The notes: generated by a model from the sequence alone, not told the origin. Shown: positions 7,073 through 59,753, numbered from the stretch's first letter. The stretch: DNA of 64,000 nucleotides from Candidatus Omnitrophota bacterium (GCA_015233335.1 JADFXX010000002.1:891-64890); one strand, 5' to 3'. Made by a program: numbers and translations.

Positions 7073-7081
7073 AATCCAAGT

Positions 7082-29298: not shown

Positions 29299-29303
29299 GA
29301 CAG

Positions 29304-33247: not shown

Positions 33248-33250
33248 AAG

Positions 33251-40483: not shown

Positions 40484-41017
40484 TTAAAAATTTACTAAAC
40501 GTATGCTTGAAACCACGATACGGCCCCGTAAAGTATTGACTGCATCGGAATATTTTTCTACATTCAGTTCATCAATAAAATACAAATTCGGTTTTTGCTG
40601 AAGCATATAGAGAAATCGTACAATATCAAGCCACTGTCCGTCAATCTGTAATTCAACAGGAAAAAATGTCACCTCTTTTTGAGTAACCGCTTTTTGTGGC
40701 TGGATATTCGCGATATGGACATTGGCATCTCTGGCAGTTGACTCAATTTTAGATACCATGGCCGTCATCTGAGAAGCTTCAGAGGCGGCTGTCCCGATCA
40801 CATCTACCAAATTTTGATACCGTGCTTCAACCTCCTGTTTTATAGCCACCATCTTGCGGGCCTTGACCAGATGAGCATGATTTAAACGGAACTGGTCATC
40901 AATGTCTATGGCGCTGCCCTGCATGGGCTTGATCACCCATTGAAAAATAATAAAAGCAAGCACCAGTCCCAGAGTTATGAACAAAATAACGGTTTCTCGC
41001 GTGCTTAGCTTTTTCAT
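40484..41017 (-). CDS. gspM: T2SS assembly-platform protein GspM / PilO-like
   Basis: 177 aa. One N-terminal TM helix, coiled coil, ferredoxin-like C-terminus (PVELQIDGQWLDIVRFLYML). Last gene of the gsp operon. Confidence 0.6.
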   Translation of the reverse strand: MKKLSTRETVILFITLGLVLAFIIFQWVIKPMQGSAIDIDDQFRLNHAHLVKARKMVAIKQEVEARYQNLVDVIGTAASEASQMTAMVSKIESTARDANVHIANIQPQKAVTQKEVTFFPVELQIDGQWLDIVRFLYMLQQKPNLYFIDELNVEKYSDAVNTLRGRIVVSSIRLVNF

Positions 41018-42447
41018 TTATCCTGTTTCACAGTTTTAATAACACATGTGATCTTAAAATAATCAACTTCACCCTGTTGAGTAACCCGCTTATTAACATA
41101 ATCCAAGTTAACATTATAAAAATACGGTGAATCAACCATGCCCTTTTGGAATTGGTTAATATCTGCGGAGTTCATGGAAACCCCCTGAAGGGACAAAGTA
41201 TGTCCGTTGCTTATGGCAATACTCACTAATGAGATCTGCGATGGCAGCAAGCGGTCAATTTCGCGGGCAAAATCAGAAAAAATCATTCTGTCCTTTAAGA
41301 CACTTTCAACATCATACACCTTTCGCAGTTGACTCTCGATGTTAGCCGCTTGGCGTTTAGTAATTTTAAGCTCATCTTCAAGTCGATTAAGCCGGATATT
41401 CTTTCTTAAAAACCCGACACCCAATGCCAAACCGACGGCAAGCAATGCCGCTAACACCCAAATTCCCATAACCACCATCTGGCGATGATTAGCCCTTTGC
41501 TTTTGCGCATCCCTGATAGATTGTGGGGTTAAATCTATTGGCGTCGCCCCGGGACTCAAGGCAATACCCGCCAGCGGGCTCATTGAAATTCCACCTTCAA
41601 TCAATAACTGGGGGATTGCAACACCACGGGCCACGGGCAAACCGTTTGTGAACAGAATATCCTTGACCGTCAAACCTCCCTGCAATTTCATCATTTCTGC
41701 ACCGAGCCCTGAGGCACGGTTAGCCCAACTGACCAAATAAACTGATCCTACGGTTGCGATTATTTTCTCGTCAATAATATTGCTTTGCGTCAGTTCCCAT
41801 TGCTTTAAGAATTCCGTATAGCCGTCACGCTGCATTTGCACGAACCCTACGGGAATTTCTCTCGAATTCAACCAATGCGTCTTATAGCATACGCAAATTT
41901 CACTATGATTAACATCCAGATCAATAATGGCACCCAGCTTCTCTAAAAGACCCGGCTGCTCTCGGTATAATAACCATAGGCCTACGGAAGAAATCGTCAT
42001 TTGATGGACTGGAATTCCTGATTCTAAAAAAATCTTCCAATAACGTATCGCCATATCCTGCGGAATGATGACCACAGCCACCCTCGCGTAACCGTCCTTG
42101 GAGATAGACAATACTTGGAAATCAATTTCAACTTCTTGTCTGGCATAAGGAATGCGGCTGCCGACCTGCAAATCGATCATGGCACGTATTTCATCCGGCT
42201 TTTGAGAAGGAAATGACATATAGCGCAATATGGCGCGGGACCGCGGGATCACGACAATCACGCGGCTTTCAGCAAAACTTAATTTGCGCTGTTTAACAAA
42301 AGCATTTAAAGTTCGGCTGATCTGTACGTCACTTTGCCCGTTGGTATCGATCACGTCTAAGCCGGCTATGACCTTCTTTTGTGTTCCCGTCGTTTGAAGG
42401 AATTTGATCATTCCTTCGCTCATATAAAACACGATGGTCGATTTCAT
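41014..42447 (-). CDS. gspL: T2SS assembly-platform protein GspL (PilM-like cytoplasmic domain, TM helix, PilN-like periplasmic domain)
   Basis: The track ORF runs to 42540. The likely start MKSTIVFYMSEG at 42447 directly follows the gspK stop. Central TM helix MVVMGIWVLAALLAVGLALGVGF. Confidence 0.6.
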   Translation of the reverse strand: MKSTIVFYMSEGMIKFLQTTGTQKKVIAGLDVIDTNGQSDVQISRTLNAFVKQRKLSFAESRVIVVIPRSRAILRYMSFPSQKPDEIRAMIDLQVGSRIPYARQEVEIDFQVLSISKDGYARVAVVIIPQDMAIRYWKIFLESGIPVHQMTISSVGLWLLYREQPGLLEKLGAIIDLDVNHSEICVCYKTHWLNSREIPVGFVQMQRDGYTEFLKQWELTQSNIIDEKIIATVGSVYLVSWANRASGLGAEMMKLQGGLTVKDILFTNGLPVARGVAIPQLLIEGGISMSPLAGIALSPGATPIDLTPQSIRDAQKQRANHRQMVVMGIWVLAALLAVGLALGVGFLRKNIRLNRLEDELKITKRQAANIESQLRKVYDVESVLKDRMIFSDFAREIDRLLPSQISLVSIAISNGHTLSLQGVSMNSADINQFQKGMVDSPYFYNVNLDYVNKRVTQQGEVDYFKITCVIKTVKQDK

Positions 42448-42448
42448 C

Positions 42449-43465
42449 CTAAACCCTCTGCCAGGAGATAATTTCTCCCGCGGCCTGCGGTGTCCAATGA
42501 ATAACTGCCTCGAGTACGGTGCGCACACCGCTTTTCTCATCGACTCCGACTACCCGTACCCTGTAATAGTCTGATTTACCCTCCTCCAAAACTTGCGGCC
42601 AGTTAGGATCTGCAATGGCCGCAATGGAGGACGTCCCGTCATCAGAACTAAAGGACTGGGCGTCTGCACCATCACGAATGGTATAAGCTTCTCTGATAAT
42701 GTCTCCCGCATTGATGGATGGATTCATGCGCGCCGAGGCATTGGCCACAGCCTGGATCACATCATTATTAGCCGTATCCGTATTGATCCATAAACCGCTT
42801 TGGGTGTCTCCATAAACCGTCAAATCATCCTTGATCTTATTGAAAATTTCCTGCGTCATGCCATTAACTTCCAATAATTCGAGCAAATTTTCATAAGGCT
42901 TATTCTTAGGCTTTAAAAGCGAATGATCCATATTCAAAAAAGATCCGTTATTGCCCGAGGTTCCTGTCCCCGTGTAATTGATGATGGCCAATGCCAGCTT
43001 ATCTGCGTTGGACTGTGATAAACCCTGTAACTGTAAAAGAGCGCTTAAAATCTGGTAATTCACAGGACTCATTGCATTGACGTTGATGCGCCCCCTCTCG
43101 TCTCTTATCCCATACTCTAAATGCGGTTTGTTCACGGGTGTATTAAAATTTTTGGCTGACCACTGAAGAGTCACATAAGCATTTGGAGCTATATCTATGT
43201 GTGAAAATATGTCCGCGGGGCTTTTGGTCTGATCAATACTGATCGCGGTCGCATACAAAGTATCTTTAGATGACGGGGAAGTTTGCATAAGATCAAGTAT
43301 TTTATTCATCCCTGCACGCGCAGCCGCATAACTGCGCAATTTCCCCCGGTAAGTTTCTAATAAAGACACCTCCAGCGATGAACGCCTCCCCAGACCCCAG
43401 GCTATCAAAGACAGAATCAACAATACCCATAATACCGCAACTAAGATAACCCCTTTATTGTTCAT
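42449..43465 (-). CDS. gspK: T2SS minor pseudopilin GspK
   Basis: 338 aa. N-terminus KGVILVAVLWVLLILSLIA lacks the Glu+5, as in GspK. Size and operon position fit. Confidence 0.7.
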   Translation of the reverse strand: MNNKGVILVAVLWVLLILSLIAWGLGRRSSLEVSLLETYRGKLRSYAAARAGMNKILDLMQTSPSSKDTLYATAISIDQTKSPADIFSHIDIAPNAYVTLQWSAKNFNTPVNKPHLEYGIRDERGRINVNAMSPVNYQILSALLQLQGLSQSNADKLALAIINYTGTGTSGNNGSFLNMDHSLLKPKNKPYENLLELLEVNGMTQEIFNKIKDDLTVYGDTQSGLWINTDTANNDVIQAVANASARMNPSINAGDIIREAYTIRDGADAQSFSSDDGTSSIAAIADPNWPQVLEEGKSDYYRVRVVGVDEKSGVRTVLEAVIHWTPQAAGEIISWQRV

Positions 43466-44189
43466 TATAATAATTTGATACCGGAGCTAAAAACATGTCC
43501 CGTTTAAACATAAGCCCTGCTTGGGGCTTTTTAGGATCATAAAGAACAAAGCTACAGCTAACCGCAAAAGGAAGAACTTTTTTGTCCCACGAGTCTGTGT
43601 AAACGATTCGCCCGGCACCCACGGTATGCAGGTCTTTCAAAAAAGGCGCATAGTGACAATTAAAAGTATCCTTTTTTAATCCTGCGGCCACAATTTGAAT
43701 AGATGTGTTATTCTTGACTTCATTGAGCCAATCGGACAAACTGCTCTCCTGACGTAATAAAAATTCTACAGGTATGGACTCTTTGAGCCTGGTCTCAAAG
43801 CTTGAAGGATTGGTGAGTCGTCCGATCATTCTTTGGGTAACCTTCCCCCAATCAACCAAGCCGCTATAATAGCGCACATGCTTTATGCCCACCGGAGTCT
43901 GGGTCAAGAATGCAAATTCTGTTTTTTGCCCGACAAAATTCTTGGCATCCCAGTAACTGTTTCTCCAATCCAGACTGATCGCATTCTCCAAATCACGAGT
44001 CATCACCTGATCGGCCATGAGCACTTCCATATAGTTATCATGGACGCGTCGCATTTTGTCATCCAGCTTCATGGCTGACCAAAACAGATTATAAACACTT
44101 ACGCCAATAATGGCGCTGATCGCCAATCCCAATAAAAGTTCAACGAGACTAAACCCTTCAGGGCATTTAACTACTTGCTTGAGTTCCAT
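43455..44189 (-). CDS. gspJ: T2SS minor pseudopilin GspJ-like
   Basis: 244 aa. Prepilin-type N-terminus GFSLVELLLGLAISAII. Confidence 0.65.
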   Translation of the reverse strand: MELKQVVKCPEGFSLVELLLGLAISAIIGVSVYNLFWSAMKLDDKMRRVHDNYMEVLMADQVMTRDLENAISLDWRNSYWDAKNFVGQKTEFAFLTQTPVGIKHVRYYSGLVDWGKVTQRMIGRLTNPSSFETRLKESIPVEFLLRQESSLSDWLNEVKNNTSIQIVAAGLKKDTFNCHYAPFLKDLHTVGAGRIVYTDSWDKKVLPFAVSCSFVLYDPKKPQAGLMFKRDMFLAPVSNYYNEQ

Positions 44190-44550
44190 TGGGAATGTTG
44201 ATAACCGTTGTCAGATCCCAAGAACCGGGCTTTTGACCAGCGGGCCAATTAAGAATCAAAGTGACCTGTTTTAAATGATCATTGATATTGTCTGTCCGGG
44301 TGCTGACTGTAAATTTATCATACGGCTCTTCTAAACTCTGGTGATTTAAGTTCAGCTGGTCCTCTGAAGCATGGGTAGCATATAAAAGCCCTAACTTGTT
44401 CTCCATAATCAAAAACGACCTGACAGTTTCCTGAAAACGCATGCCGGTGCGAAAATTGGTCAACAAGGCCTGAACAATAAAGGTGAGGCATACGCTGACA
44501 ATCACAACCGTCAAAATCGCCTCCAGAAGCATAAAACCGTTTTTATTCAT
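44167..44550 (-). CDS. gspI: T2SS minor pseudopilin GspI-like
   Basis: 127 aa. Prepilin-type N-terminus NGFMLLEAILTVVIV. Confidence 0.65.
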   Translation of the reverse strand: MNKNGFMLLEAILTVVIVSVCLTFIVQALLTNFRTGMRFQETVRSFLIMENKLGLLYATHASEDQLNLNHQSLEEPYDKFTVSTRTDNINDHLKQVTLILNWPAGQKPGSWDLTTVINIPNGTQASS

Positions 44551-45070
44551 TGTCCACTTTCATCAGCACCCCCCGCACGAGGACTGAAGACAGTACGATT
44601 TTTTGTAAAGGGGAGTCCAGTTCAATAACTGCCCTATCAATCATGCCGTCCGGATAAAATTCAATACGGTCATCCTGAGTATCAAGATTAACCCCATCCG
44701 GAATTATATGCATGCGCCCAAGGGCCCCCTTGACGGGCTCAAAGCTGTCCGGATAACTCTCCTTTTCAATATTCCATGTCTCATCGTTTTGAAGAGCGGC
44801 CTTTGCGCAAACGAGGCTATACGAGCGGCGATCATTGGAAAAAGACAGGACATAGATGCGTTCTTGCCCTATCGCCATAGCCTGGGCCCAACGGCTTATG
44901 CCCAGCAAATCATCCGCCGTCTTATTCAACTGAAAGCGAGCATACCCACTGGAAAAATTCGGCACAGCGAGCGCTAAAATTATACCGACGATAATGACCG
45001 CTAACAACATTTCGACCAGGCTAAAGGCCTTATTTACTCTCATTTCCCCAGTTGGTGATATCATCGGCAC
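44543..45070 (-). CDS. gspH: T2SS minor pseudopilin GspH-like
   Basis: 175 aa. Prepilin-type N-terminus KAFSLVEMLLAVIIVGI. The start is probably the internal ATG at 45043. Confidence 0.6.
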   Translation of the reverse strand: MPMISPTGEMRVNKAFSLVEMLLAVIIVGIILALAVPNFSSGYARFQLNKTADDLLGISRWAQAMAIGQERIYVLSFSNDRRSYSLVCAKAALQNDETWNIEKESYPDSFEPVKGALGRMHIIPDGVNLDTQDDRIEFYPDGMIDRAVIELDSPLQKIVLSSVLVRGVLMKVDNE

Positions 45071-45473
45071 TTTCTATTCCATCAGCTCCCAAAGACGAAA
45101 GATCGTAACTATCCGGATTATGCGCACCGGGGAATACGTAAATATAGTCATGGCCCCAGGGATCTTTGGGAATTTTCTTTTTCTTTAAATAAGGACCATT
45201 CCACTGTGCCGGTACAGGGCTCACAGTCGGCAGTGTCAACAGAGCACTTAATCCCTGTTCGGTCGTAGGATATCGTCCGGTATCCATATGATATAAATCC
45301 AACGCCGTACTCAGATTAGACTCAATATCGGTCCGAGCCGCGGTCTTGCGCGTCTGCTCACTGCGTCCGGAGATATTAGGAACGATCATAGCCACCAATA
45401 TCCCGATGATAACGACCACAAGCATGATCTCAATTAAGGTAAAACCTCTTCTTTGATGAAAAAACATAATCAT
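45030..45473 (-). CDS. gspG: T2SS major pseudopilin GspG
   Basis: 147 aa. RRGFTLIEIMLVVVIIGILVAMIVPN followed by KTAARTDI...YPTTEQGL..L and DPWGHDYIY, the canonical GspG pattern. Confidence 0.9.
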   Translation of the reverse strand: MIMFFHQRRGFTLIEIMLVVVIIGILVAMIVPNISGRSEQTRKTAARTDIESNLSTALDLYHMDTGRYPTTEQGLSALLTLPTVSPVPAQWNGPYLKKKKIPKDPWGHDYIYVFPGAHNPDSYDLSSLGADGIESADDITNWGNESK

Positions 45474-45485
45474 CTCCCTATAGGG

Positions 45486-46703
45486 TCAATTAATAATCAT
45501 ATTCATCTGAAACATCGGCAAGAGCATGGCTACGATCATAAATCCCACGATACTTACCACCACAACCAATACTGCCGGCCCTAAGATCGTCACAAAAGCT
45601 CCTGCCATATCTTGGGAGGCGCGTTCGCAACTTGCGGCCAATTTATACAATCCTCTTTCTAATTTACCACTTTCCTGCCCTACGGCAATCAGATCAACAG
45701 CCATTTCCGGAAAAAGCGTACTTGCCTTAATCGCCTGTGTCAGGCTCATGCCGGCTTTAACCCTGAGCGCAATTTTCTTTACCTCTTCCTGCAGAGCGTG
45801 GTTGTCTACAACCATTGTCACCGACTCAAGCGCGGGCACAATAGGCACACCGCTTTCAAGCAACATCCCCAAAGTCCTGGAAAACCGGCTTAACTGGGTA
45901 TTTTCAATGTATGACTTTAATAAGGGGATTCTCAAAGAAAACCCGTCGATCCATGCTTTGCCCTGTCCGGTCTTCAAATAAGAACGTATCCATAAAATCA
46001 CGATTGTTATAACAGCAGCCATAAGCCACCAAAACTGAGCAAATACCCCACTTACGGCCACGACCATCCGGGTTACAAGCGGCAACTGGGCGTCAAAATC
46101 TTCAAACATCATTGTCAGACGAGGCAAAACAAAAGACAGCAGCACAAAAAGCGTCAACAAGCCAACAACAAGAATAATAACCGGATATAATAAACTCGCC
46201 TTAGCTTTGGACTGTATTTGCATATCATTTTCCAGAAATTGAGCCAGCCGATTTAATACCAGCGGCAGCTTACCGCTCGCTTCCGCCGCTTTGACAGTAT
46301 GAATATACAATGTTGAAAATATTCCCGGATATTTTGCTAAAGCAAAAGAAAGGCTTCCGCCTTGCTGTAATAAAACAGTCATCGACTCAATAACTCCGAC
46401 CATAACGGGAAATTGGCGCTGACGGGACAACAATTCCATAGAACGGGCTAAAGGGATTCCTGCATCTAATAAATCCGCCAACTGTCTGGTAAATTGGAAC
46501 AAAGCAGCCCGAGAAACACTGATATCAACCCCGGTTGATTTCGAAGACTGCGGTAACACCATTTTTTCGTGGAGCTTGACATCAAAAGGCATTTGCCCCG
46601 CATTGGTCAGACGGGTTACAGCATCGGCAACGCTTTCCGCGTCAATAAATCCACTGATCACGTCGTTGGGGCCACTTTTAGCTTTGTAAATGAAATGCGC
46701 CAT
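45486..46703 (-). CDS. gspF: T2SS inner-membrane platform protein GspF
   Basis: 405 aa. Two repeated T2SS-F cytoplasmic domains separated by TM helices. Confidence 0.85.
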   Translation of the reverse strand: MAHFIYKAKSGPNDVISGFIDAESVADAVTRLTNAGQMPFDVKLHEKMVLPQSSKSTGVDISVSRAALFQFTRQLADLLDAGIPLARSMELLSRQRQFPVMVGVIESMTVLLQQGGSLSFALAKYPGIFSTLYIHTVKAAEASGKLPLVLNRLAQFLENDMQIQSKAKASLLYPVIILVVGLLTLFVLLSFVLPRLTMMFEDFDAQLPLVTRMVVAVSGVFAQFWWLMAAVITIVILWIRSYLKTGQGKAWIDGFSLRIPLLKSYIENTQLSRFSRTLGMLLESGVPIVPALESVTMVVDNHALQEEVKKIALRVKAGMSLTQAIKASTLFPEMAVDLIAVGQESGKLERGLYKLAASCERASQDMAGAFVTILGPAVLVVVVSIVGFMIVAMLLPMFQMNMIIN

Positions 46704-46706
46704 CAG

Positions 46707-48314
46707 TTATTCGTCTTCCGTAACCCTTAAAACCTCGCTGGGGCTGGTTAAACCTTGAGCCACTTTTTCCCATCCATGCTGACGCAACGTCTTCATGCCG
46801 TCTAAAATAGCCAATTGTTTGATGTCCCTGCTGGTCGCCCGTGCGGTAACCAGCATACGCGTTTTTTCATTAAGCACCAAAAATTCACAAATTGCCTGCC
46901 GGCCTCTGTAGCCTGTCATACGGCATTCTTTACACCCTACAGCTTCATAAATGACAGGATCACGGGTAATATGGCTTAACTCAAATTCTTTTTTAATAGT
47001 GTCAGTGAAAGGCGTTTGTTTTTTGCAAGCTGGACACAACAGTCTCACCAAACGCTGCGCTAAAAAACACTCAACGGAGGAAGCGATTAAATAAGGCTCG
47101 ATGCCTATATCGATTAGGCGAGTGACCCCGGAGGCGGCATCATTGGTGTGCAAAGTTGAAAAAACCAGATGACCGGTTAAGGACATTTGGATGGCGATCT
47201 GCGCTGATTCAAAATCACGCACCTCCCCTATCATAATGACATCAGGGTCATTGCGCAGGATGGAACGCAGAGCCGCGGCAAATGTCAGGCCAATAGCTGA
47301 ATTGGCTTGAATTTGCACCGCTCCTTTAAGCTGATATTCCACCGGATCCTCAACTGTGATGATCTTAGTGTCTTCCGAATTGATGGCGGCTAAACACGAG
47401 TACAATGTAGTTGTTTTTCCGCTACCCGTTGGACCAGTTAAAAAAATGATTCCATGCGGTTTATTGATCAAGACCTCTAGCTGTCGACGTTCTTCTCCCA
47501 CAATACCCAATTCCTCAAGATTATATAAACGAAACGCGTTAAGCAAACGAATCACGCAACTTTCCCCGAAAGTAGTAGGTAAAAAAGACACTCTCAAATC
47601 CATATCAGTCCCTTCCACCTTGACTTTAAAGCGGCCGTCCTGCGGAAGACGCTTTTCGGCGATATTCAAGTTTGAAAGGATCTTAACGCGGGAGATCAGG
47701 GCATCCTGAAAATAACGGATATTTTCGGGAACTTGAGCGTCATAAAGCACCCCGTCGATACGATAGCGTATACGCAGCTCATTGCCGAAAGGTTCAATGT
47801 GAATGTCGGTAGCGCCGTCGCGGTGCGCCTGAAATAAGATTTGGTTCAAGAATTGACTGATCGATGCTTCAGAGGAAGATTGATCGATCGCTTCAATAGC
47901 GGGAAGCTCCGGGATCACCATCTGTGCATCAGACATCATTCTTTCGATTGTTTCTGCGCCGAGGCCATAATGTTCCCGAATAGCTTCGATGATGTCTTTT
48001 TCAGCCGCTAAAATAGGTTGAATAGGAGTTTGCGCTACCATACTTAAATCGTCAATCACGGACACTTCCCAGGGATTTCTCATAGCTACCGTCAAAGTCC
48101 CATTTTCATACTTGACAGGAAAAACTTTATAATGATTAACAGCTTTCGCAGGTAGACGGCCTAGGACCTGGGGGGAAACGGTAATTGCTTTTAAAGAAAT
48201 GAAATCAATCTGGCCCGTCATTTTTTGTTCTTCCAAAGCCTGTTTTAACTGCTCCGGGCTTATCACTCCCTTTTTTAATAGCAGCTCTCCTAAAAAAACA
48301 TATGGTTTTTTCAT
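46707..48314 (-). CDS. gspE: T2SS ATPase GspE
   Basis: 535 aa. Walker A GPTGSGKTT, Asp/His boxes, tetracysteine CPACK...CKECRMTGY, N-terminal T2SSE_N region. Confidence 0.9.
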   Translation of the reverse strand: MKKPYVFLGELLLKKGVISPEQLKQALEEQKMTGQIDFISLKAITVSPQVLGRLPAKAVNHYKVFPVKYENGTLTVAMRNPWEVSVIDDLSMVAQTPIQPILAAEKDIIEAIREHYGLGAETIERMMSDAQMVIPELPAIEAIDQSSSEASISQFLNQILFQAHRDGATDIHIEPFGNELRIRYRIDGVLYDAQVPENIRYFQDALISRVKILSNLNIAEKRLPQDGRFKVKVEGTDMDLRVSFLPTTFGESCVIRLLNAFRLYNLEELGIVGEERRQLEVLINKPHGIIFLTGPTGSGKTTTLYSCLAAINSEDTKIITVEDPVEYQLKGAVQIQANSAIGLTFAAALRSILRNDPDVIMIGEVRDFESAQIAIQMSLTGHLVFSTLHTNDAASGVTRLIDIGIEPYLIASSVECFLAQRLVRLLCPACKKQTPFTDTIKKEFELSHITRDPVIYEAVGCKECRMTGYRGRQAICEFLVLNEKTRMLVTARATSRDIKQLAILDGMKTLRQHGWEKVAQGLTSPSEVLRVTEDE

Positions 48315-48345
48315 ATACCCTTAAATCCCATGGTCAAGTGTTTCA

Positions 48346-50172: not shown

Positions 50173-50681
50173 TAGCCACCTTTGTCATTTGATCCTTTAT
50201 GGATCGCTAAAGGGATATCTTGTCCTTGATAATTTATAATCAATTGATTCTTATTCACCCGCACAATCCTGATCCCAGCTTGGGGTTTCCCCTGATCTAT
50301 AAAATACGTCATGTGCGCCAAAGTATCTTCAATGATCACCTCGGATGTACCGGCTATTAAAATACCTACTATTTTTAAATGAGCAGGAAGCTGTCCCTTC
50401 GGAGTTATTTCAACATTCCCAGACGGGCCGATAGCAGTGGGAGAGGAAAAAATATCCCTGTTTTGAGCCCAAACAGCCGCGTCATAAGGCTTTAGGTCTA
50501 ATTCCGGTGCAGGTTGGATAAACTCCGCAGCCTTAATCGGAACGTCAATGCTTTCAGGGAGCATAGAATTACCCTGACTTATGAACATCGAATAAGCCAC
50601 ATAGGCACAAAGCCCAAGTGTCAAGACCATGGACAAGCGCTGGACCAACCGTAACACAGGCCATGCAAAGGGAATCCCCAT
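50172..50681 (-). CDS. GspC/PilP-like inner-membrane T2SS component (tentative)
   Basis: 169 aa. One TM helix plus a small beta-rich domain (LKIVGILIAGTSEVIIED...IRIVRVNKNQLIINYQGQ). First gene of the gsp operon, ending 1 nt into gspD. Confidence 0.45.
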   Translation of the reverse strand: MGIPFAWPVLRLVQRLSMVLTLGLCAYVAYSMFISQGNSMLPESIDVPIKAAEFIQPAPELDLKPYDAAVWAQNRDIFSSPTAIGPSGNVEITPKGQLPAHLKIVGILIAGTSEVIIEDTLAHMTYFIDQGKPQAGIRIVRVNKNQLIINYQGQDIPLAIHKGSNDKGG

Positions 50682-50783
50682 ATTCTAATCTATAATTATA
50701 AACACTTATTTAAATATTAAAAAGTAAAAGATAAGTTTTTTTATTGCGGAATTACTCTTTCCTGTGCGAAATCCAGACAATCT

Positions 50784-53669
50784 TTATTTCTTTGGCGCAA
50801 CAACAGTTACTTTATTAGAAGCCTGACTTTCGATACCGCTCGAGTTAACAGCCGTGACATAGTAACTTCCCGAACTGATACCTAAAACATAAACGCCTGT
50901 TGTGGCCGAAATACTGCCGTAAAAAGAAAAAGTTGTGCCATTTACGGAACCATAAATATTATTCTTTGTAATATTCAGACTATTGGACTGCGTCCATTGT
51001 AAAAGCACCGCGGGAGTCCCTTTGTAGCTTGTCGCTAAACCCGTCAAATTGGCAACAGGCGCCACAGTTACGGAACTTTTGGGTGTCGCGCTCACTTGCA
51101 GAGAATTTGGGCTGACAGCCCCAAACCCGCTTACATTGATATATGTTGAAACAACATAGTAATAAGTTGCCCCATTAACAACCGTCGTGTCCTTAAAATT
51201 ATTGGCTGTGGCATAACCAATGGTACTGTAGGGCCCTCCGTTTACTGTCGATCTTCCGATATAGTACCACAATGCTTGGGATACCGCATTCCATGAAAGG
51301 GTCACACTCCCCGACGCTGGAACAGCAGCCAATCCACTGGGAGCCGGTGGCGGTGCAAACGGAGTGACCATATACAGATTAGAATTCGGGCTTTCTCCTC
51401 CAGCATTGAGGGCACTGACAGTATAATAATAAGTCATTTGGTTTTTGGCGGATGTGTCCACATATGTTAAGTTCTTTGTTTGGCTTGTCAGTACAGTAAA
51501 GGGGCCGCTCGTCGCAGTGGATCTTTTGACATTATACGACGTCGCCCCGACACTGGCATTCCAGGACACGGCAACTTGATTATTACCGGGCATCACTGAA
51601 AGACCTGTAGGAGCCGCCGGAGGCGAAAGGGCCGGAGCCATAGGCTTGGCCTGCACCTGTGAGGAATTGGCACTTTCTCCAGCCGCATTGACTGCGCTCA
51701 CTACATAATAGTATGTTGTTCCATTGGCAACTGACGTGTCCGTATAGCTGCCTGTCTTAACAGCGCCACTGACAGAGATCGTGGAATATGGCCCTGCGCT
51801 GACCGTAGATCTTTTAACATTGTAATAAACAGCTGTTGTGCTGATGCCCCAAGCAAGAGCGACTTGCGCATTGCCTGCGGTAGCATTTAAACTAGTAGGC
51901 ACGGCCGGAGGAACAGCCTTAGTTGATCCAACCAAGTCATTATACAAATTTACACCATTAAAGGCCCCCAAACCCGTTGCATCATCGAAACCCGCCTGAG
52001 CAGTATAATACTGGTTATTGCCGGCTACTATGTCATGAAAATCTGTAGAATATTTGCTGCCAGCAGCTAAGAGATAAAGCACGGGATTTAAAAATCCTAC
52101 GATCGATTGACCGGCGTGTACCCTGCCTTGATTGACCTGGGCCAAAAAAGCAGCCCAGGTCGGTGCAGCTATGCTGGAACCCCAGAAACCATACCACCCT
52201 GAAGATTGAGGAGCGGTCGTTATATAAAAAGCATATGCGGTCGAGGGGTCCGCTGTCAGGGAAACATCCGGCACATTGCGCATAGTTTTTGATACCTTTG
52301 AAGCACTGCTCGCTGTTGATGCCATGGCTTGTTGATAAGAAGGAATAGTGTTAAACATGCTTACCCCACCGCCGCCATAGAGGGATGAGGTCTCACTCTT
52401 ATAGGTCCCATCGGAATTCATGACCAAGGCACTAATCCCAACGCCCGTTGCAAACGGTTGAGAAGAAGGCTCATCGGCTGATAATGTTTTTGTCGAACAA
52501 TCAGCATAAGCTCCGCAATCTCCTGATGCCACAAATACTTCCTGTCCCTGAGCTGCCATTCTTTGAAAAATCTGATTATCAAAACTCACTGTCGGAGCAT
52601 AGTACTCAGCAAGACCCCAGGAACAACTGATGATCTTGGCTAAATTATCATTGGCGATTTTGGTCCACTCATCATCCCAAGCTTGAAACGTGTTCGGGGC
52701 TTCATAAACATAAATCTTGTTAATAGACCAGGGCGCAATCCCTATCAATTCCTCAATATCGAGAGTGACCTCTTCGTTGCCTCCGTTGTAGGTCGGCAAT
52801 CCATTAAATCCATCAACAAGGACATTCTGCAACGTCACACTATTATTAGGAAGATGAAAATAGGATTCATACGCCGCAATGTCGCTTTGTAAATATCCGT
52901 CAAGCTCAAAAAGAGCCACATTTTGCAGTGAACTGGGATCACTGATAGATGGAATGGCGTTAAGATTATACGCTTTTTGCACATCCCCGAAAGCAAGATA
53001 TCCTCCTGGACCTGTGCCCATGTGAGGAACCGCCACCTGAGCTTGACCAAAACTTTGAGAAGGATTGAGTGGCAAGCGGTTCGAATGAGGCTTGAATTTA
53101 AGCGCGTTGTCCATACCCCCAACTGCCCAAACCTTCCCGACAATTTCCGTTGAAATCGTTGGGTTGGCGTCGGGAGCAAAAAACGTTGTACCGTCGTTCT
53201 TGGAATAATGGTTAATATGCACCCCGAAGGTTTTCTCAACGACCCCCACCGCTCCTTTTATCTGCAAAACAGTCCCGTTAGGTGATTGGGTAATTATTGT
53301 AAACCCTCTGGAATTAAAGTAACTTTTTAATTTATTTAAGTCCATATCAGAAGACTTGAACTGCTGATTAAACTGATCTGAAGTTAAAAAATGATGATAA
53401 TTAGGGCTGGTCGGATCATAAATACTTTTAAGCAAAGTGTCTAATTGTACTTGGTTCGTTAAAGGTACTATGATCCTCAAATCCATCATTTCATTAGCAT
53501 CAGCATGGTGATCAAATTTAGACAAAGCCACTGCTTGCGGCACATGTCCGGCCAATGTGCGGCTGCCATCAAGGTTATCTTTGTAATGCAAGGTTGTATC
53601 AGCAAATGAATATTGGGCCATTGCGCCCATAAAAATGACCAATAAAATCTTAAGAAGATTTTTGCGCAT
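50784..53669 (-). CDS. Secreted S53 (sedolisin/kumamolisin-like) serine-carboxyl peptidase with four C-terminal FN3 domains (paralog 1)
   Basis: 961 aa. Signal peptide; pro-kumamolisin-type activation region (DLRIIVPL...YDPTSPNYHHFLTSDQF); catalytic motifs EVTLDIE, ASGDCGAY and WGSSIAAPTWA; four repeats of about 90 aa with YNVKRS / TYYYVVSAVN patterns. Confidence 0.85.
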   Translation of the reverse strand: MRKNLLKILLVIFMGAMAQYSFADTTLHYKDNLDGSRTLAGHVPQAVALSKFDHHADANEMMDLRIIVPLTNQVQLDTLLKSIYDPTSPNYHHFLTSDQFNQQFKSSDMDLNKLKSYFNSRGFTIITQSPNGTVLQIKGAVGVVEKTFGVHINHYSKNDGTTFFAPDANPTISTEIVGKVWAVGGMDNALKFKPHSNRLPLNPSQSFGQAQVAVPHMGTGPGGYLAFGDVQKAYNLNAIPSISDPSSLQNVALFELDGYLQSDIAAYESYFHLPNNSVTLQNVLVDGFNGLPTYNGGNEEVTLDIEELIGIAPWSINKIYVYEAPNTFQAWDDEWTKIANDNLAKIISCSWGLAEYYAPTVSFDNQIFQRMAAQGQEVFVASGDCGAYADCSTKTLSADEPSSQPFATGVGISALVMNSDGTYKSETSSLYGGGGVSMFNTIPSYQQAMASTASSASKVSKTMRNVPDVSLTADPSTAYAFYITTAPQSSGWYGFWGSSIAAPTWAAFLAQVNQGRVHAGQSIVGFLNPVLYLLAAGSKYSTDFHDIVAGNNQYYTAQAGFDDATGLGAFNGVNLYNDLVGSTKAVPPAVPTSLNATAGNAQVALAWGISTTAVYYNVKRSTVSAGPYSTISVSGAVKTGSYTDTSVANGTTYYYVVSAVNAAGESANSSQVQAKPMAPALSPPAAPTGLSVMPGNNQVAVSWNASVGATSYNVKRSTATSGPFTVLTSQTKNLTYVDTSAKNQMTYYYTVSALNAGGESPNSNLYMVTPFAPPPAPSGLAAVPASGSVTLSWNAVSQALWYYIGRSTVNGGPYSTIGYATANNFKDTTVVNGATYYYVVSTYINVSGFGAVSPNSLQVSATPKSSVTVAPVANLTGLATSYKGTPAVLLQWTQSNSLNITKNNIYGSVNGTTFSFYGSISATTGVYVLGISSGSYYVTAVNSSGIESQASNKVTVVAPKK

Positions 53670-53714
53670 AATTTTTCCTTTTAAAAATTGGAAACTGATA
53701 AAGGGAGGGTATTA

Positions 53715-53815
53715 AAAAGAGGTTATCCGAGGTCCGCTCGACTACCATAGGTTGCCCTTTAGGTTCGATCCTTTGCGCCGCCAGGTTTCCCTGACTTTGC
53801 CTTTTACTCTAACCG
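53715..53815 (-). promoter_or_regulatory. Candidate c-di-GMP-I (GEMM-I) riboswitch aptamer (boundaries approximate)
   Basis: Minus-strand RNA: AAAAGGCAAA-GUCAGG-GAAA-CCUGGC-GGCGCAAAGG-AUCGAA-CCUAAAG-G-GCAA-C-CUAUGG-UAGUCGAGCGGACC. This gives GGCAAA, a 6-bp helix with a GAAA tetraloop, CGCAAAG, both halves of a tetraloop receptor, and AGCGG, in the GEMM-I order. Confidence 0.75.
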
Positions 53816-53817
53816 GT

Positions 53818-53846
53818 AGTATACCATCTCATCGATCGGCTGTCAA
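53818..53846 (-). promoter_or_regulatory. Sigma70 promoter driving the riboswitch leader
   Basis: Minus strand: TTGACA (53846..53841), 17 nt (GCCGATCGATGAGATGG), TATACT (53823..53818). Confidence 0.6.
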
Positions 53847-53884
53847 AATGCGGAAAAAAAGAAGATGCACGGCCTTTTCAATTG

Positions 53885-54859
53885 CTATATTTGCAGCCCT
53901 ATACGCAAACCGTACTCTTGGGTATTATTTCTCGGTTCATAAAGAACCGCGGTGGGATCAGTCGGATCAACTTTACTATTAGACTGCGCGATCTTCCAGT
54001 ATCGATAAAATCCTTCTGCAAAAGCAGTAAAATACTTAAAATATAAATTCAACCTTAAAGAGGCCCTCAAGCCATACCCGCCTCTTTGATCTACGACGAG
54101 CGTACTATAACCCGGGATGTCTCCTAATTTGCTCACCTGCCAACCATTAAACATATAATCATACTCAAGGTTGCTTTCAAAACTGGAATTAGGATATTTC
54201 TGATATACAATATCTGCTCCTAAAGGCAAGTAGCAATAATGTGAGAACCTTTTATACCCTTGCAAAGTATACTCATCGGTGACAGTAATCAGCCCTTCTG
54301 AGTTATCTTTCAAATACCTGTAGCCAAAACCAAAGTATCCTGTTGTCCTCAAATAGGAAGAAGGGTAGAAATCTTTTCCGACGACACCTCTTATATCAAA
54401 GGTGCTATCTTTAATGCCAGAAGGCCCTTGATCAGGAGCTTGTTTAAATTTCCCGCTAGCCCACTGCCCTTGAATTCGGAACATATTAATAATGGATTGA
54501 GGAGCGCTAGTCATTCTATGGGAAAATTGGGCACTGTATCCCGACATAAATCCTTTTTGATACATATTCTTAGGCTCGTCGTATTTAGCCCAATACAGTT
54601 CAGGGCTGAAGCTTAACTCATTTGTCTTAGGAGCGATGGCGGGCTTGAAAGAAGGAATTATAATAGTGTTATTCTTAGAAGGAGAAGCAACTGACGGCTT
54701 AATACCCGAAATTTCTATTTTGTCCAATTCTTGATTAACTTGCCGCATATGCACGTAACTGGAGGGCAAGTAATTCTCTGACCAGTTGTCCGCACAACAG
54801 ACAGAAATAGCGAAAAAATATATCGTCGCAGATAAGATAATTAAAGAAAATCGCATCAT
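53885..54859 (-). CDS. Putative outer-membrane beta-barrel protein (unknown family)
   Basis: 324 aa. N-terminal signal, Pro/Ser-rich linker, then about 230 aa with alternating aromatic beta-strand periodicity ending ...YGLRIGLQI. Confidence 0.5.
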   Translation of the reverse strand: MMRFSLIILSATIYFFAISVCCADNWSENYLPSSYVHMRQVNQELDKIEISGIKPSVASPSKNNTIIIPSFKPAIAPKTNELSFSPELYWAKYDEPKNMYQKGFMSGYSAQFSHRMTSAPQSIINMFRIQGQWASGKFKQAPDQGPSGIKDSTFDIRGVVGKDFYPSSYLRTTGYFGFGYRYLKDNSEGLITVTDEYTLQGYKRFSHYCYLPLGADIVYQKYPNSSFESNLEYDYMFNGWQVSKLGDIPGYSTLVVDQRGGYGLRASLRLNLYFKYFTAFAEGFYRYWKIAQSNSKVDPTDPTAVLYEPRNNTQEYGLRIGLQI

Positions 54860-54872
54860 AAGAAATAGACGA

Positions 54873-57743
54873 TCAATAATTTACTGTCACCGAATTGGAA
54901 GCCAAACTTTCAACCCCGCTTGAATTAAAAGCCGTAACTTTATAATTATAAACCGTTCCTTTTGTCGTATTCTTATCCGTGTATGAAGTTGATGCACCAA
55001 CGGTAGCCAACAGAGAATAAGCACCGGCACCTACGGAACGATAAATCTTATTTTGAACTACACCGGGCGCTATTGACTGTGCCCAATATAACACGACCCC
55101 TCCATAGACAATTCTGCCTCCTACTCTGGCCGCTAAAAGCGTTGCTTTTATGTTCGTTGGGGCTGGCATGCCCTGGGGGGCTGCACTTACTTCAAAAGAA
55201 TTGGCCCCTTCACCGGTGCCATTAACCGCACTGACTACGTAGTAATAGGTGGTCCCGTTGGTCAGATTAGTATCTGTATAAGATGGAGTTGTGACTGCTC
55301 CGGGTGTAGATACGGTTGAATATGACCCGCCGCTTGTTGGCGATCTTTTAACATTATAGGACGTTGCACCATTAGCGTTCCAAGTCAATGTTACTTGTTT
55401 ATTACCTGAAGCAGCATTTACTCCCGTCGGAGCTAAGGGCAAAGTTGCCAAGGGTGTGAGCGGTATTTCTACAGAATTCGCACCCTCCCCACTTGCATTA
55501 AGCGCGCTAATGACATAGTAATAAGGGGTGTTGTTGCTAAGGCCGCTGTCTGTAAAAGATGTCCCCGTAACTGTGGCTATGGTTGAATACCCGCTTCCGC
55601 TGGTTAAAGATCTTTTAACATGATACGACGTGGCTGTTGGCGTCACATTCCAATTGATGGTGGCTTGTGTGTTGCCCGGAGTACCGTTCTGTCCTGTCGG
55701 AGCTGACGGAGGGGCAATAGGAGTAGCACTAACCTGAGAAGAAAATGTGCTTTCTTCTCCTAAAATACTAACCGAAGTGACCACATAATAATATGTTGTC
55801 CCATTGATGACATTGGTGTTATCTGTATAAGGAAGCGAGGTTATACCGGTGTATGTTGGTGTTGAATAAGAATTAGAAGTGGTTGACCTGTAAATTTTAT
55901 ACGACACTGCTGCCGGAATAAGACTCCAGGACAGTGTGACTTGGGCATTTCCCGCTGTCGCGGTCAAACCGCTAGGCGTTGCAGCAAAGAGATCATTGTA
56001 CAAACCAAGACCACTAACAGAACCTATCAAAGAACCTAACCCTGTGACAAGGTCATACCCTATTCCTGCTGAAAAGCCATTATTCCCTGAGGTTATATCA
56101 TGATAATCTAGAGCATTGTGACTTCCTTGGGCAATCGTATAAAGTGACGGATTAAGAAAACCAATAGGAGTCTGTCTAACCTGATTAACGCGGGTTACAA
56201 GAGCTGCCCAGATGGGCGTCGCAACACTAGATCCCCAATAACAGCCCCAACTCCCACCAATTAAAACATCATAACAAGAGCTCAGGCTATTATCTGCAGT
56301 TAGGGCTACATCAGGAACATTACGTCCTCCGGCAGTAATGCCGGCCAATCCCTGCTGATACAACGGGACCGGCCAAGTTCCGCTAATCCCTCCGCCGCTT
56401 TCTGAAGAACCCGTTTCAGAGCTCCAATTCCCAGAAGGATCTGTTGTCAAGGCACTGATCCCAACAGCAGTTACACCGGGGTCAGAAGCAGGAGAACTGG
56501 CATTTGTAGTAGGACCGGAAGTGTTGTAAGCTCCTGCATCACCCGACGCTACCATAATAGTCACTCCCTGAGTGGCCATCTGTTGAAAAAGAGTATGCTC
56601 CGTATCGAGAATAGAAAAACCGCTAAAAAGGATAATATTAGCTATCGACTGCTCTGCAATCCCCCATGAAACGCTGACCACTTGTGCTATATTATCACTT
56701 GCGATCCGTTCCCATTCATCAATATAATTCAAAGCAGTATTTTGGGCCTCATAAACCAAGATCTGCTTAAGCCCCTGGGCAATTCCCAATGCTATTTCAA
56801 TGTCCAGCGTCACTTCGTCAGTACTGGGTCCGGCCGACCCATCATACCCATCAATCAAAACATTCTGCAAACTAGGCAAGTGAAAACCAAAATAACCGGC
56901 ATAAGTAGAAATATCACTTGCCAAATATCCATCAAGTTCAAAAAGCGCTAATGTCTGATTATTGCCATCAGTCGTATTCAACGTAAAATTATAAGCTTTA
57001 GCGACATCTTGAGGCTCAAGCCCTCCGTTAGGCCCATGATGAGCTAGGGGTTGCGCCTTCACTCCGCCCGTGGCGGTGACTATACCTTTTTGCAATGACT
57101 TATTTTGCTTGGGGCCTGTATACTTATGGTTAAAAGCCTGAAACTTTACTGCGTTGTCCAACCCGATAACTGCCTTTATTTTCCCTGCCATTGGAGTAGG
57201 AATCGTTGGATCCGCATCAGGAGCGAAAAATAGCGTCCCGTCACTTCTTTTATAATTATTAACGTTAAGCTTAAAAGCATGCTCAACTTTTGATAATGGG
57301 CCTGTCACAGAAAGAATAAGCCCGTTTTTTGACTGTCTCTTAACGGTCAAGCCCAGTGACTTAAGATTTTCTTGAACTATTGAAAAGTCGAGTGCAGAGG
57401 CTCCAAATTGCTGGGCAAATTGTTCAGGAGTTATGAATTTATGATAAATCGGGCTTTGGGGATCGTAAAGGTTCTTAATAAGTTGATCCAATCCGGCTTG
57501 GTCCTTAACAGGCAGAATGATTCGAAGATCAAGCGTTTGATTAGAGTTCGCATGTGCTATTCTTTGGGCTTTGCCTTTAGACACTTCTCCGGGGACGTAA
57601 TTAAGCAGGGTTTGACTGCCATCCGGATTATTTTTAAAATGAGCCGTTAATTTTTTTTCTTGGGCATTGGCCAGAGAACTCAATAAGACAAGAACAGCCA
57701 TTGTCAAATTCCAAAACGTGCCCATCTTTTTAAAAATCGTCAT
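54873..57743 (-). CDS. Secreted S53 (sedolisin/kumamolisin-like) peptidase with C-terminal FN3 domains (paralog 2)
   Basis: 956 aa. Signal peptide (SLANA|QE); pro-domain (DLRIILPV...YDPQSPIYHKFITPEQF); catalytic motifs EVTLDIE, ASGDAGAY and WGSSVATPIWA; FN3 repeats with YNVKRS / TYYYVVSAVN. Confidence 0.85.
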   Translation of the reverse strand: MTIFKKMGTFWNLTMAVLVLLSSLANAQEKKLTAHFKNNPDGSQTLLNYVPGEVSKGKAQRIAHANSNQTLDLRIILPVKDQAGLDQLIKNLYDPQSPIYHKFITPEQFAQQFGASALDFSIVQENLKSLGLTVKRQSKNGLILSVTGPLSKVEHAFKLNVNNYKRSDGTLFFAPDADPTIPTPMAGKIKAVIGLDNAVKFQAFNHKYTGPKQNKSLQKGIVTATGGVKAQPLAHHGPNGGLEPQDVAKAYNFTLNTTDGNNQTLALFELDGYLASDISTYAGYFGFHLPSLQNVLIDGYDGSAGPSTDEVTLDIEIALGIAQGLKQILVYEAQNTALNYIDEWERIASDNIAQVVSVSWGIAEQSIANIILFSGFSILDTEHTLFQQMATQGVTIMVASGDAGAYNTSGPTTNASSPASDPGVTAVGISALTTDPSGNWSSETGSSESGGGISGTWPVPLYQQGLAGITAGGRNVPDVALTADNSLSSCYDVLIGGSWGCYWGSSVATPIWAALVTRVNQVRQTPIGFLNPSLYTIAQGSHNALDYHDITSGNNGFSAGIGYDLVTGLGSLIGSVSGLGLYNDLFAATPSGLTATAGNAQVTLSWSLIPAAVSYKIYRSTTSNSYSTPTYTGITSLPYTDNTNVINGTTYYYVVTSVSILGEESTFSSQVSATPIAPPSAPTGQNGTPGNTQATINWNVTPTATSYHVKRSLTSGSGYSTIATVTGTSFTDSGLSNNTPYYYVISALNASGEGANSVEIPLTPLATLPLAPTGVNAASGNKQVTLTWNANGATSYNVKRSPTSGGSYSTVSTPGAVTTPSYTDTNLTNGTTYYYVVSAVNGTGEGANSFEVSAAPQGMPAPTNIKATLLAARVGGRIVYGGVVLYWAQSIAPGVVQNKIYRSVGAGAYSLLATVGASTSYTDKNTTKGTVYNYKVTAFNSSGVESLASNSVTVNY

Positions 57744-57792
57744 GACTGTTCTCCTTGGATATTAAGAAGCACTTTTTTACAATGTAATAATA

Positions 57793-57812
57793 ATTATACG
57801 TCTTTCAAAGAC
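57793..57812 (-). promoter_or_regulatory. -10 box (TATAAT) abutted by a 13-nt palindrome upstream of S53 paralog 2
   Basis: Minus strand: GTCTTT-G-AAAGAC (57812..57800), G, then TATAAT (57798..57793). No convincing -35. SD AAGGAG lies 7 nt before the ATG at 57743. Confidence 0.3.
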
Positions 57813-57860
57813 TTTAAAAAGAAGAAATAGAATTATTTTGATTAGGGAGAAAACTGCGGA

Positions 57861-59225: not shown

Positions 59226-59752
59226 TCCTCTTTTTTATGATATTCATCCAACAATCGCCGTATATCAGTAGGTGAATTTTTAGCAATTTGAGAACAGACA
59301 AAGATCAACAACGAGAACTGCCAAACATCGTCAGGCCCGCAAACTAAACCTGCAGATGTATTTTCCTCTCTCTGCAATTGATTCCCATATACTCCAATAG
59401 CATTTTCTATTTTACCTTCAAAAACGTTCAAAGAGAAAATTTTATTATCATATTTCATGGAAGGCAGGGTAACCCCCCTGACCATGAGAAAATTAATCAT
59501 GGTGTTTTCAAGAAAAGAGCCTTCACCGAGATCAAAACCTTCCAGTTGAGGGATATTCGGAGGTAAGATCAAGGTTGGCCGATGGACCAACACTTCTCCC
59601 GTACGCACAACCGTATCGCCTTCGTTAATGACAGACGGTGATAAAAGTATATACGGCACATGCGTTTCAGAGAAGGTTTGCAGACCTGTGACCCTTGAAC
59701 GGATGATGTTTGTTTCTTTTAAAGCCTTTTCCCAAGCTGAATGGACATCCAT
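59222..59752 (-). CDS. Hypothetical cytoplasmic protein (no recognisable domain)
   Basis: 176 aa. Start lies 1 nt after the upstream stop, and its stop overlaps the ATPase TTG start. No TM helix or nucleotide-binding motif seen. Confidence 0.5.
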   Translation of the reverse strand: MDVHSAWEKALKETNIIRSRVTGLQTFSETHVPYILLSPSVINEGDTVVRTGEVLVHRPTLILPPNIPQLEGFDLGEGSFLENTMINFLMVRGVTLPSMKYDNKIFSLNVFEGKIENAIGVYGNQLQREENTSAGLVCGPDDVWQFSLLIFVCSQIAKNSPTDIRRLLDEYHKKED

Positions 59753-59753
59753 A

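Follow-up and report, generated by a model that had tools for sequence, protein, structure and literature searches.

Background

Whether a secretion system and the enzymes encoded beside it form one functional island, or were brought together from separate modules, is the question raised by a locus of Candidatus Omnitrophota bacterium. The window analysed here is a stretch of 64,000 nucleotides (GCA_015233335.1, JADFXX010000002.1:891-64890) in which two S53 sedolisin proteases with fibronectin type III (FN3) modules, paralogs 1 and 2, are encoded next to a type II secretion system (T2SS). Omnitrophota are uncultured, possibly predatory nanobacteria, and their secretion biology is known from genomes only. 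An earlier note on this DNA described the genes at 40484-57743 as a dedicated, second-messenger-gated protease-secretion island. The gene order and co-orientation it gave were borne out, as every gene lies on the minus strand in the order paralog 2, outer-membrane barrel, riboswitch, paralog 1 and then gspC-like, D, E, F, G, H, I, J, K, L and M. GC content is even over the region.

With moderate confidence, we take this region to be a composite of three transcription units built from separately conserved modules and not one island. The locus joins known parts in a new way and does not represent a new kind of system. Adjacency by itself had overstated the case: the T2SS is the conserved machine of the lineage, and the proteases are later arrivals.

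Conserved gene order at T2SS and protease loci

Five operons orthologous to that of the window (L085, L086, L087, L090, and L091; secretin 69-79% identical) keep the order gspC-D-E-F-G-H-I-J-K-L-M. An S53 gene was found in none of the five, and no riboswitch was found in L085, L086, or L087, the three that were searched. Compared with L086 and L090, the window has ~7.2 kb of additional DNA (50682-57860), which comprises both protease genes with the barrel gene and the riboswitch between them. At the left edge of this block is a triad of genes (57861..60191, minus strand) for proteins of 145 aa and 176 aa, both without a family match, and for a 454-aa FlaI/TadA-like ATPase. Homologs of the triad (60-89% identical) lie directly upstream of gspC in L086 and L090, and the protease block is therefore read as an insertion.

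The same comparison was made from the side of the proteases. The S53-FN3 family gave >1,500 matches, and 79 genome loci were examined, spanning Omnitrophota, metagenome-assembled genomes (MAGs) labelled 'Planctomycetales', Armatimonadota, Geomonas, Chlamydiota, and Verrucomicrobiota. No T2SS like that of the window was found beside the S53-FN3 gene in 77 of them. The sole full T2SS (1/79) lies downstream of the protease in L007, on the same contig as L004 and from another Omnitrophota MAG, where the order riboswitch-S53-gspC..L is that of the window and the Gsp proteins share 60-91% identity with those of the window. In L014, a distant, inverted GspE-like gene lies upstream of the protease, with nothing more of a T2SS. 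The closest protease homologs (P0002, 66%; P0005, 50%; P0010, 58%) have unrelated neighbour genes.

Synteny of such proteases with T2SS genes thus recurs in L004/L007, so it cannot be called absent altogether. Co-conservation of substrate and machine was not seen, with S53 in 0/5 orthologous operons and a T2SS at 1/79 S53-FN3 loci. The dedicated-island reading of the earlier note was rejected on the reverse synteny, with S53 lacking from five T2SS orthologs.

A metagenome scan with the window secretin, which was not a survey, returned a single locus, the more distant operon of L084 (45% identity in the secretin). It encodes a GH28+FN3 protein (6112-8784) immediately upstream of gspC. SNase nuclease and PilZ genes are located nearby, and PilZ genes also occur near the T2SS in L004 and L087.

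Promoter-like elements

The pattern CTTTTTAA-N13-16-TATAATTA has exactly two matches in the 64 kb of the window, where 0 were expected and none occurred in 100 shuffles. Copy A (CTTTTTAA-N15-TATAATTA; 57791..57821, minus strand) is located upstream of paralog 2, right after the ATPase gene, and copy B (50693..50724, minus strand) is directly upstream of gspC. L086 and L087 have one match each, in both cases before gspC. Across the window, L086, L087, and L004, the ~60 nt before gspC are conserved, with an invariant TATAATTA ~12 nt from the start codon that is preceded by a T-rich box; the copy aligned before gspC in L004 has diverged and keeps TATAATTA. Given this conserved element directly before gspC, the T2SS probably has its own promoter.

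Copy A can be aligned with the element found before gspC in L086, L087, and L004. We infer that the block entered between gspC and its promoter and that the promoter region was duplicated in the process, by which the T2SS would have kept its own promoter while paralog 2 and the barrel received a copy.

c-di-GMP riboswitch and its predicted regulation

A cyclic di-GMP (c-di-GMP) class I aptamer (c-di-GMP-I, GEMM-I; RF01051) was found at 53733..53811 on the minus strand, 63 nt upstream of the start codon of paralog 1, with 49.7 bits (gathering score, 35). Just upstream of it is a sigma-70-like promoter, TTGACA-17-TATACT with TG (53818..53846, minus strand), an 11/12 match and the best in the 19.5 kb scanned. 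Aptamers were located with Rfam and with a covariance model built in this analysis, and neither gave a riboswitch before paralog 2 or gspC. The riboswitch named in the earlier note is therefore a real c-di-GMP-I aptamer, but one that precedes paralog 1 only.

An aptamer lies directly upstream of an S53-FN3 gene in six loci: the window, L001, L005 (=L003), L006, L007 (=L004), and L008. Because this order is conserved, the riboswitch is predicted to gate paralog 1, and the conserved unit is riboswitch plus protease gene, not the T2SS. The five homologous aptamers score 48-63 bits with RF01051. In the alignment of all six, 88.7% of cells are paired, nine pairs show compensatory changes, and 0/500 shuffles reach the covariation score; the alignment was fitted to the covariance model, which biases these counts towards structure. 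Neither our own model nor Rfam gave a riboswitch by the distant S53-FN3 homologs of Geomonas, Armatimonadota, Thermodesulfovibrionales, Parachlamydiales, and Verrucomicrobia.

The window aptamer has a G immediately 5' of the GC of GGCAAA, which by our own count is position 20 of Vc2. At that position, G is selective for c-di-GMP, versus the A of cyclic GMP-AMP (cGAMP)-type GEMM-Ib aptamers, and A gives cGAMP or dual specificity (PMC6140456). The aptamer of L007 (9729-9845, the same as L004 9789-9905) has an A at the counted position, and the other five have G.

At 16-30 nt past the aptamer, the leaders of L001, L005, L007, and L008 contain a terminator that is strong and self-contained and has a U-tract. 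In L001, L005, and L008, the 5' arm of the terminator has CAGCT(T/C), complementary to the aptamer 3' strand GUCGAGCUGC, and the minimum-energy fold of the full L001 leader forms an anti-terminator pairing with that strand. Based on this layout, termination is predicted when ligand locks the aptamer, and these four relatives are probably c-di-GMP OFF switches. The leaders of the window and L006 are short, and no significant terminator was found in them. The candidate hairpin of the window, GGUAGUCGAG/CUCGGAUAACC, has -6.7 kcal/mol and z = 0.01, no better than shuffled sequence, and CCUCUUUUUAA pairs with the Shine-Dalgarno region in the minimum-energy fold (whole-leader z = 0.77).

A class I c-di-GMP riboswitch on a secreted protease gene has been described for zmpI of C. 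difficile, where it is an OFF switch (PMC6366702); the same review cautions against carrying riboswitch direction between species. Both zmpI (PPEP-1) and paralog 1 have a GEMM-I aptamer in the 5' leader of a gene for a Sec-exported extracellular protease, and the self-contained intrinsic terminator platform of the four relatives resembles that of the C. difficile class I OFF switches. The window differs in that its enzyme is a serine-carboxyl S53 protease with FN3 modules instead of a zinc metalloprotease, its host is a diderm omnitrophote, and its own platform has no clear terminator. No published link between c-di-GMP riboswitches and S53 peptidases was found in the literature, and this conserved riboswitch-sedolisin link is apparently undescribed. 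A class I riboswitch on a sedolisin gene in six loci supplies a concrete regulon member for c-di-GMP signalling in Omnitrophota.

A REC-GGDEF-HD-GYP protein is encoded in the window at 8402-9997 (minus strand), which indicates that the organism makes and degrades c-di-GMP. A PocR-PAS histidine kinase gene (10390-12606, minus strand) adjoins it, and this arrangement is a possible input to the c-di-GMP pool of the riboswitch.

Sedolisin proteases

Paralog 2 (54873..57743, minus strand; 956 aa) and paralog 1 (50784..53669, minus strand; 961 aa) are S53 sedolisin-FN3 pre-pro-proteases that are 42% identical end to end. Paralog 1 is identical (100%) to protein HQL14_01250, and the window secretin is HQL14_01240. 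The pro-kumamolisin activation domain (Pro-kuma_activ, PF09286) is present in paralog 2 with an E value of 8e-27 and in paralog 1 with 8e-28. Alignment of paralog 1 to pro-kumamolisin 1t1e (E 8e-37) placed E300, D304, D384, and S499 on kumamolisin E78/D82/D164/S278, the catalytic and oxyanion residues of that enzyme, and all four are invariant across a 27-sequence family alignment. Paralog 2 has the catalytic motifs EVTLDIE, SGDAG, and GSSVATP at places equivalent to those of paralog 1. An AlphaFold2 (AF2) model of paralog 1 (mean predicted confidence, pLDDT, 80.4) gave template-modelling (TM) scores of 0.83 to pro-kumamolisin 1t1e and 0.76 to the TPP1 precursor, both normalised to the target.

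By profile search, each protease has three clear FN3 modules and one divergent C-terminal module, and in a structure search the C-terminus of the paralog 1 model resembled four-FN3 fragments. Of the four modules claimed earlier, three are thus clear in each protease and the fourth is divergent. Both proteases start with a Sec-type signal peptide that has no lipobox Cys. A hydrophobic C-terminal anchor was found in neither, and PEP-CTERM, T9SS CTD, LPXTG, lipobox, and other sorting domains were absent from both in Pfam and NCBIfam scans and on inspection of the sequences. Judged from these features, both are intact Sec-exported sedolisins with predicted catalytic activity. What the earlier note had said of the two enzymes held: the signal peptides, pro-kumamolisin-type pro-domains, and intact catalytic motifs were found in both, the scans gave no alternative sorting signal, and the catalytic residues of paralog 1 aligned with those of kumamolisin.

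The window enzymes share with kumamolisin and sedolisin (MEROPS S53) a pro-domain of the pro-kumamolisin type, the subtilisin-like fold, the Glu-Asp-Ser triad, and the oxyanion Asp, but they differ in their four C-terminal FN3-type modules, the predicted riboswitch control, and the partner barrel gene.

Two observations were made on protease homologs elsewhere. In L002 (8008-22525), a single contig encodes three S53-FN3 paralogs of 1,500-1,700 aa; a further large gene separates the second from the third, and no riboswitch, barrel, or T2SS is nearby. The closest homologs outside Omnitrophota are from the 'Planctomycetales' MAGs (L008, L009, L010, L011, and L014), with a riboswitch in L008 and a barrel in L014; this could reflect mis-binning, mislabelling, or horizontal transfer.

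Outer-membrane beta-barrel

The gene 3' of paralog 2 (53885..54859, minus strand) codes for a 324-aa protein that had no Pfam or NCBIfam family match and no match to sequences of solved structures. The best Foldseek matches of its AF2 model (pLDDT 86.7) were OpcA (E 7e-12) and OmpT/Pla, with a TM score of 0.74-0.82 to OpcA 1k24 when normalised to the target. A signal peptide and a closed antiparallel barrel are predicted, and by its model the protein is a small OpcA/OmpT-like outer-membrane barrel. Distant homologs carry PF03797 (autotransporter beta-domain) and PF13505. An autotransporter-type translocator was considered and is less likely, as the NalP/EstA translocators rank below OpcA and OmpT/Pla among the structural matches.

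The barrel or a homolog of it (49-71% identical) is encoded immediately 3' of an S53/FN3-type gene in five loci: the window, L014, L088, the P0248/P0011 contig, and L089. On the P0248/P0011 contig and in L088, the barrel gene directly follows the S53-FN3 gene; in L014 it follows the second of two S53 genes, and in L089 the gene of a long FN3-repeat protein that is truncated where the contig ends. Because the pair recurs in five loci, paralog 2 belongs to a conserved pair with an outer-membrane barrel. The protease of L088 is closer to paralog 2 in its C-terminal FN3 region (53% identity) than overall (45%). The analysis identifies this conserved gene pair of a protease and a small barrel, and our preferred guess is that the barrel is a surface anchor of paralog 2.

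Genes for exosortase EpsH, a polysaccharide deacetylase, and GHL10 lie near the S53-FN3-barrel pair in L088 (11209-13633) and on the P0248 contig, where a PAS-GGDEF-EAL gene also accompanies it. These neighbours, the GGDEF-EAL gene included, are a hint of a cell envelope or matrix link for the pair.

T2SS operon annotation

Profile annotation with Pfam and NCBIfam upheld the gsp genes as a real T2SS operon, with the gspC-like gene weakly supported. All are on the minus strand. The gspC-like gene (50172..50681; 169 aa) matched TIGR01713 weakly (E 2e-4), and orthologs 51-69% identical to it precede gspD in all related operons. The L084 gene at the gspC position, matched to the gspC-like gene of the window by position and not by alignment, passes PF11356 (T2SSC). 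The secretin GspD (48346..50172; 608 aa) passes the cutoffs for Secretin and for Secretin_N three times; its N0 domain (24.5 bits, cutoff 27) and the GspD model (279 bits) are below cutoff, and the PilQ subfamily model is above it with 300.8 bits. The ATPase GspE (46707..48314; 535 aa), which has a truncated MshEN N-terminus, matched T2SSE (E 2.7e-129), MshEN, and TIGR02533 (583 bits), and the platform protein GspF (45486..46703) matched T2SSF twice and TIGR02120 with 325 bits.

The major pseudopilin GspG (45030..45473) scored 152.5 bits with TIGR01710 against a cutoff of 88.85. The minor pseudopilins are GspH-like (44543..45070; N_methyl, weak TIGR01708), GspI-like (44167..44550; no model match, with an N-terminal G/FMLLE prepilin motif and a position kept in orthologous operons), GspJ-like (43455..44189; N_methyl, TIGR01711 with E 1.3e-6), and GspK (42449..43465). 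GspK has T2SSK_1st (PF21687) at 30.4 bits against 26.2, and its NF037980 match (E 3e-17, 63.1 bits) is below the 130-bit cutoff. The set is completed by a 508-aa GspL-like assembly protein with PilM-like and PilN-like parts (41014..42540; PilN, PilM_2, TIGR01175) and by a GspM/PilO-like protein (40484..41017; T2SSM_b, PilO, NF040576).

The gsp set is full but divergent, as GspG alone passes an NCBIfam equivalog cutoff and GspD/E/F are strong but below theirs. As in TXSScan-style definitions of a T2SS, GspD/E/F/G occur together, with minor pseudopilins that include the T2SS-specific GspK, and with GspL/GspM. The ATPase triad upstream might be an accessory of this T2SS clade that has gone unrecognised.

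No prepilin peptidase (Peptidase_A24) was found among the scanned open reading frames (ORFs), which were all those flanking the locus and all those of at least 230 aa elsewhere in the window, the shorter ORFs outside the flanks being scanned in part; this agrees with the absence of gspO claimed earlier. Prepilin peptidase genes are commonly unlinked to gsp genes, and their absence nearby does not exclude membership in a T2SS. The enzyme may be encoded elsewhere on the contig or in the genome.

MshEN motifs of GspE

MshEN domains consist of two tandem 24-residue motifs with a 5-residue spacer, each starting with Arg, that cooperate to bind one c-di-GMP (PMC5013675). The window GspE shares the motif xLGxxLLxxGVIxxxxLxxALxxQ with the MshEN ATPases V. 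cholerae MshE and P. aeruginosa PA14_29490 (PMC5013675). Its orthologs in L004, L086, L087, L090, and L084 have two tandem MshEN-type motifs of 24 residues joined, as in those ATPases, by the 5-residue spacer. The window GspE differs in keeping motif 1 only (48200-48314, residues 1-38), since a 27-aa in-frame deletion removes exactly the second motif. The first key Arg is replaced by Phe in the window and by Tyr in the orthologs, and NF053729 gave 37.1 bits on the window GspE against a cutoff of 38, with half of the model covered. Both motifs are lost from GspE of L085 and L091.

Because motif 2 is deleted, the first Arg is Phe, and two orthologs have neither motif, c-di-GMP binding by the window GspE is doubtful. 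A double c-di-GMP gate through the GspE MshEN, considered on account of the NF053729 score, was rejected for the window because of the 27-aa deletion and the missing key Arg. Retention of the motifs does not track the riboswitch, as L004 keeps both and L085 and L091 have none, and c-di-GMP sensing by this T2SS ATPase seems evolutionarily labile.

Proposed organization and alternative explanations

In the organization that we propose, a first unit would be the lineage-conserved T2SS operon, from the gspC-like gene to gspM, under its own promoter-like element. A second would be the conserved two-gene module of paralog 2 and the small outer-membrane beta-barrel, located downstream of a duplicate of the T2SS promoter-like element. 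A third, also a conserved module, would comprise the consensus sigma-70 promoter, the c-di-GMP-I riboswitch, and paralog 1. The second and third units would together make up the ~7.2 kb block inserted between the ATPase gene triad and gspC. Both sedolisins would be made as pre-pro-enzymes, cross the inner membrane by Sec as their signal peptides indicate, and fold with the kumamolisin-type pro-domain seen in domain and fold searches. The neighbouring general T2SS would then probably pass them across the outer membrane, where the barrel might hold paralog 2 at the surface via its FN3 tail. From the position of the aptamer, c-di-GMP would tune paralog 1 only, at the RNA level.

Export of the proteases by the T2SS is plausible because they have Sec signals and no other sorting signals, because of the promoter sharing, and because of precedent at the level of the phylum (bioRxiv 10.1101/2023.11.21.568195). 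Several points weigh against the proposed organization. The T2SS route is read from sequence, the promoter-like elements are read from conservation only, and another T2SS may be encoded in the genome outside these 64 kb. The adjacency in the window and L004 may have come from one ancestral event. The riboswitch platform of the window has no significant terminator, and no terminator was found between paralog 1 and gspC, so that riboswitch-dependent read-through into the T2SS genes could occur.

Among the alternatives, one gives the functional partnership to the barrel and not to the T2SS, with S53-FN3 and barrel acting as a self-contained display or export module (split autotransporter-like or adhesin-anchor) and the T2SS adjacency incidental. 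This we consider unlikely. The pair is kept in five loci, four of them without an adjacent T2SS, the distant barrel homologs match the autotransporter beta-domain, and the FN3 region of the L088 protease is the part closer to paralog 2; however, the predicted barrel is small and OpcA/OmpT-like, with no POTRA and no obvious pore for a folded protein of ~100 kDa, and no barrel gene accompanies the riboswitch-linked S53-FN3 genes of L001, L005, and L007. Anchoring by the barrel is, moreover, compatible with export by the T2SS. In a further reading, to which we assign a rather low probability, the S53-FN3 sedolisins of these Omnitrophota make up a two-tier exoprotease system on the T2SS. Paralog 2, with a cognate OpcA-like barrel anchoring its FN3 tail at the cell surface, would have been captured behind a duplicated T2SS promoter and so be co-expressed with the machine, and the second enzyme would be released only at a particular c-di-GMP level. 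If true, the protease-barrel pair would serve to display T2SS cargo at the surface, as a module not described before, and would do so in a phylum thought by some signs to be predatory or epibiotic. A slightly lower probability still attaches to neutral juxtaposition, in which the DNA 5' of gspC serves as a variable site of insertion and the uncoupled proteases act in the periplasm or leave otherwise. The upstream neighbours of gspC do differ in every related operon (TPR protein, Fic, ATPase triad, GH28-FN3), one such operon has small ORFs next to gspC and an RHS toxin further upstream, and the L004 protease gene is preceded at ~2 kb by IS110 transposase genes. Yet the adjacency is kept in two genomes though the proteases have diverged to 55% identity, and the element that precedes paralog 2 is a copy of the promoter-like one of the T2SS, which implies co-expression. 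In addition, FN3 tails and a pro-domain are features typical of extracellular enzymes.

The least probable of these readings, by a small margin, is that the T2SS is the dedicated exporter of both sedolisins and that the whole protease and gsp unit is gated by c-di-GMP via the riboswitch. It would account for the contiguous, co-oriented genes and for the lack of a terminator-like site between paralog 1 and gspC. In L004/L007, moreover, the order is the same and the riboswitch has a transcription terminator, so that read-through control could extend downstream, and the orthologous GspE proteins carry tandem MshEN c-di-GMP-type motifs. It is opposed by the five orthologous operons without S53 (and without a riboswitch in the three searched), by the 77 of 79 S53-FN3 loci without a window-like T2SS, and by the conserved promoter-like element just upstream of gspC; paralog 2 has no riboswitch, and the window GspE has lost its second MshEN motif. 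The dedicated island of the earlier note is not supported by the two synteny counts. Second-messenger gating of the island as a whole is likewise not supported, as the riboswitch has the protease gene as its partner, gspC has a promoter-like element before it, and paralog 2 pairs with the barrel.

T2SS loci with an adjacent substrate gene include Klebsiella pulA-pulC-O, P. aeruginosa Hxc-LapA, and E. coli T2SSbeta-SslE. As in the window, a secreted hydrolase gene adjoins a full gsp operon in the same orientation; in the three named systems, the substrate is conserved together with its machine, and the two are often regulated as a unit. The window differs in that its T2SS is conserved without the protease in 5/5 orthologous operons and has its own promoter-like element. 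The rarity ascribed earlier to such arrangements is contradicted by these three systems. Omnitrophota loci in which T2SS-like genes adjoin giant secreted proteins contradict it as well (West-Roberts et al., bioRxiv 10.1101/2023.11.21.568195). These are from the same phylum and resemble the window in having large extracellular-type hydrolase or adhesion proteins by gspD/E/F loci with PilZ genes nearby, but their proteins have thousands to tens of thousands of residues and their loci include rcpC/Tad-like parts, whereas the window has sedolisins of ~960 aa by a canonical GspC-M operon with GspG and GspK.

Other genes in the window

An unusual fusion of a bactofilin domain to an HTH_17 DNA-binding domain is encoded at 61588-62109 (minus strand), and the gene of a small HTH_17 protein (61289-61618, minus strand) adjoins it. 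A NiFe-hydrogenase cluster at 28258-38537 (minus strand) contains NuoE/F/G-like subunits and the maturation genes hypD/hypF, along with an AIR-synthase-family gene that is probably hypE. Beside this cluster, a cyclic nucleotide (cNMP)-binding protein is encoded at 38547-38999.

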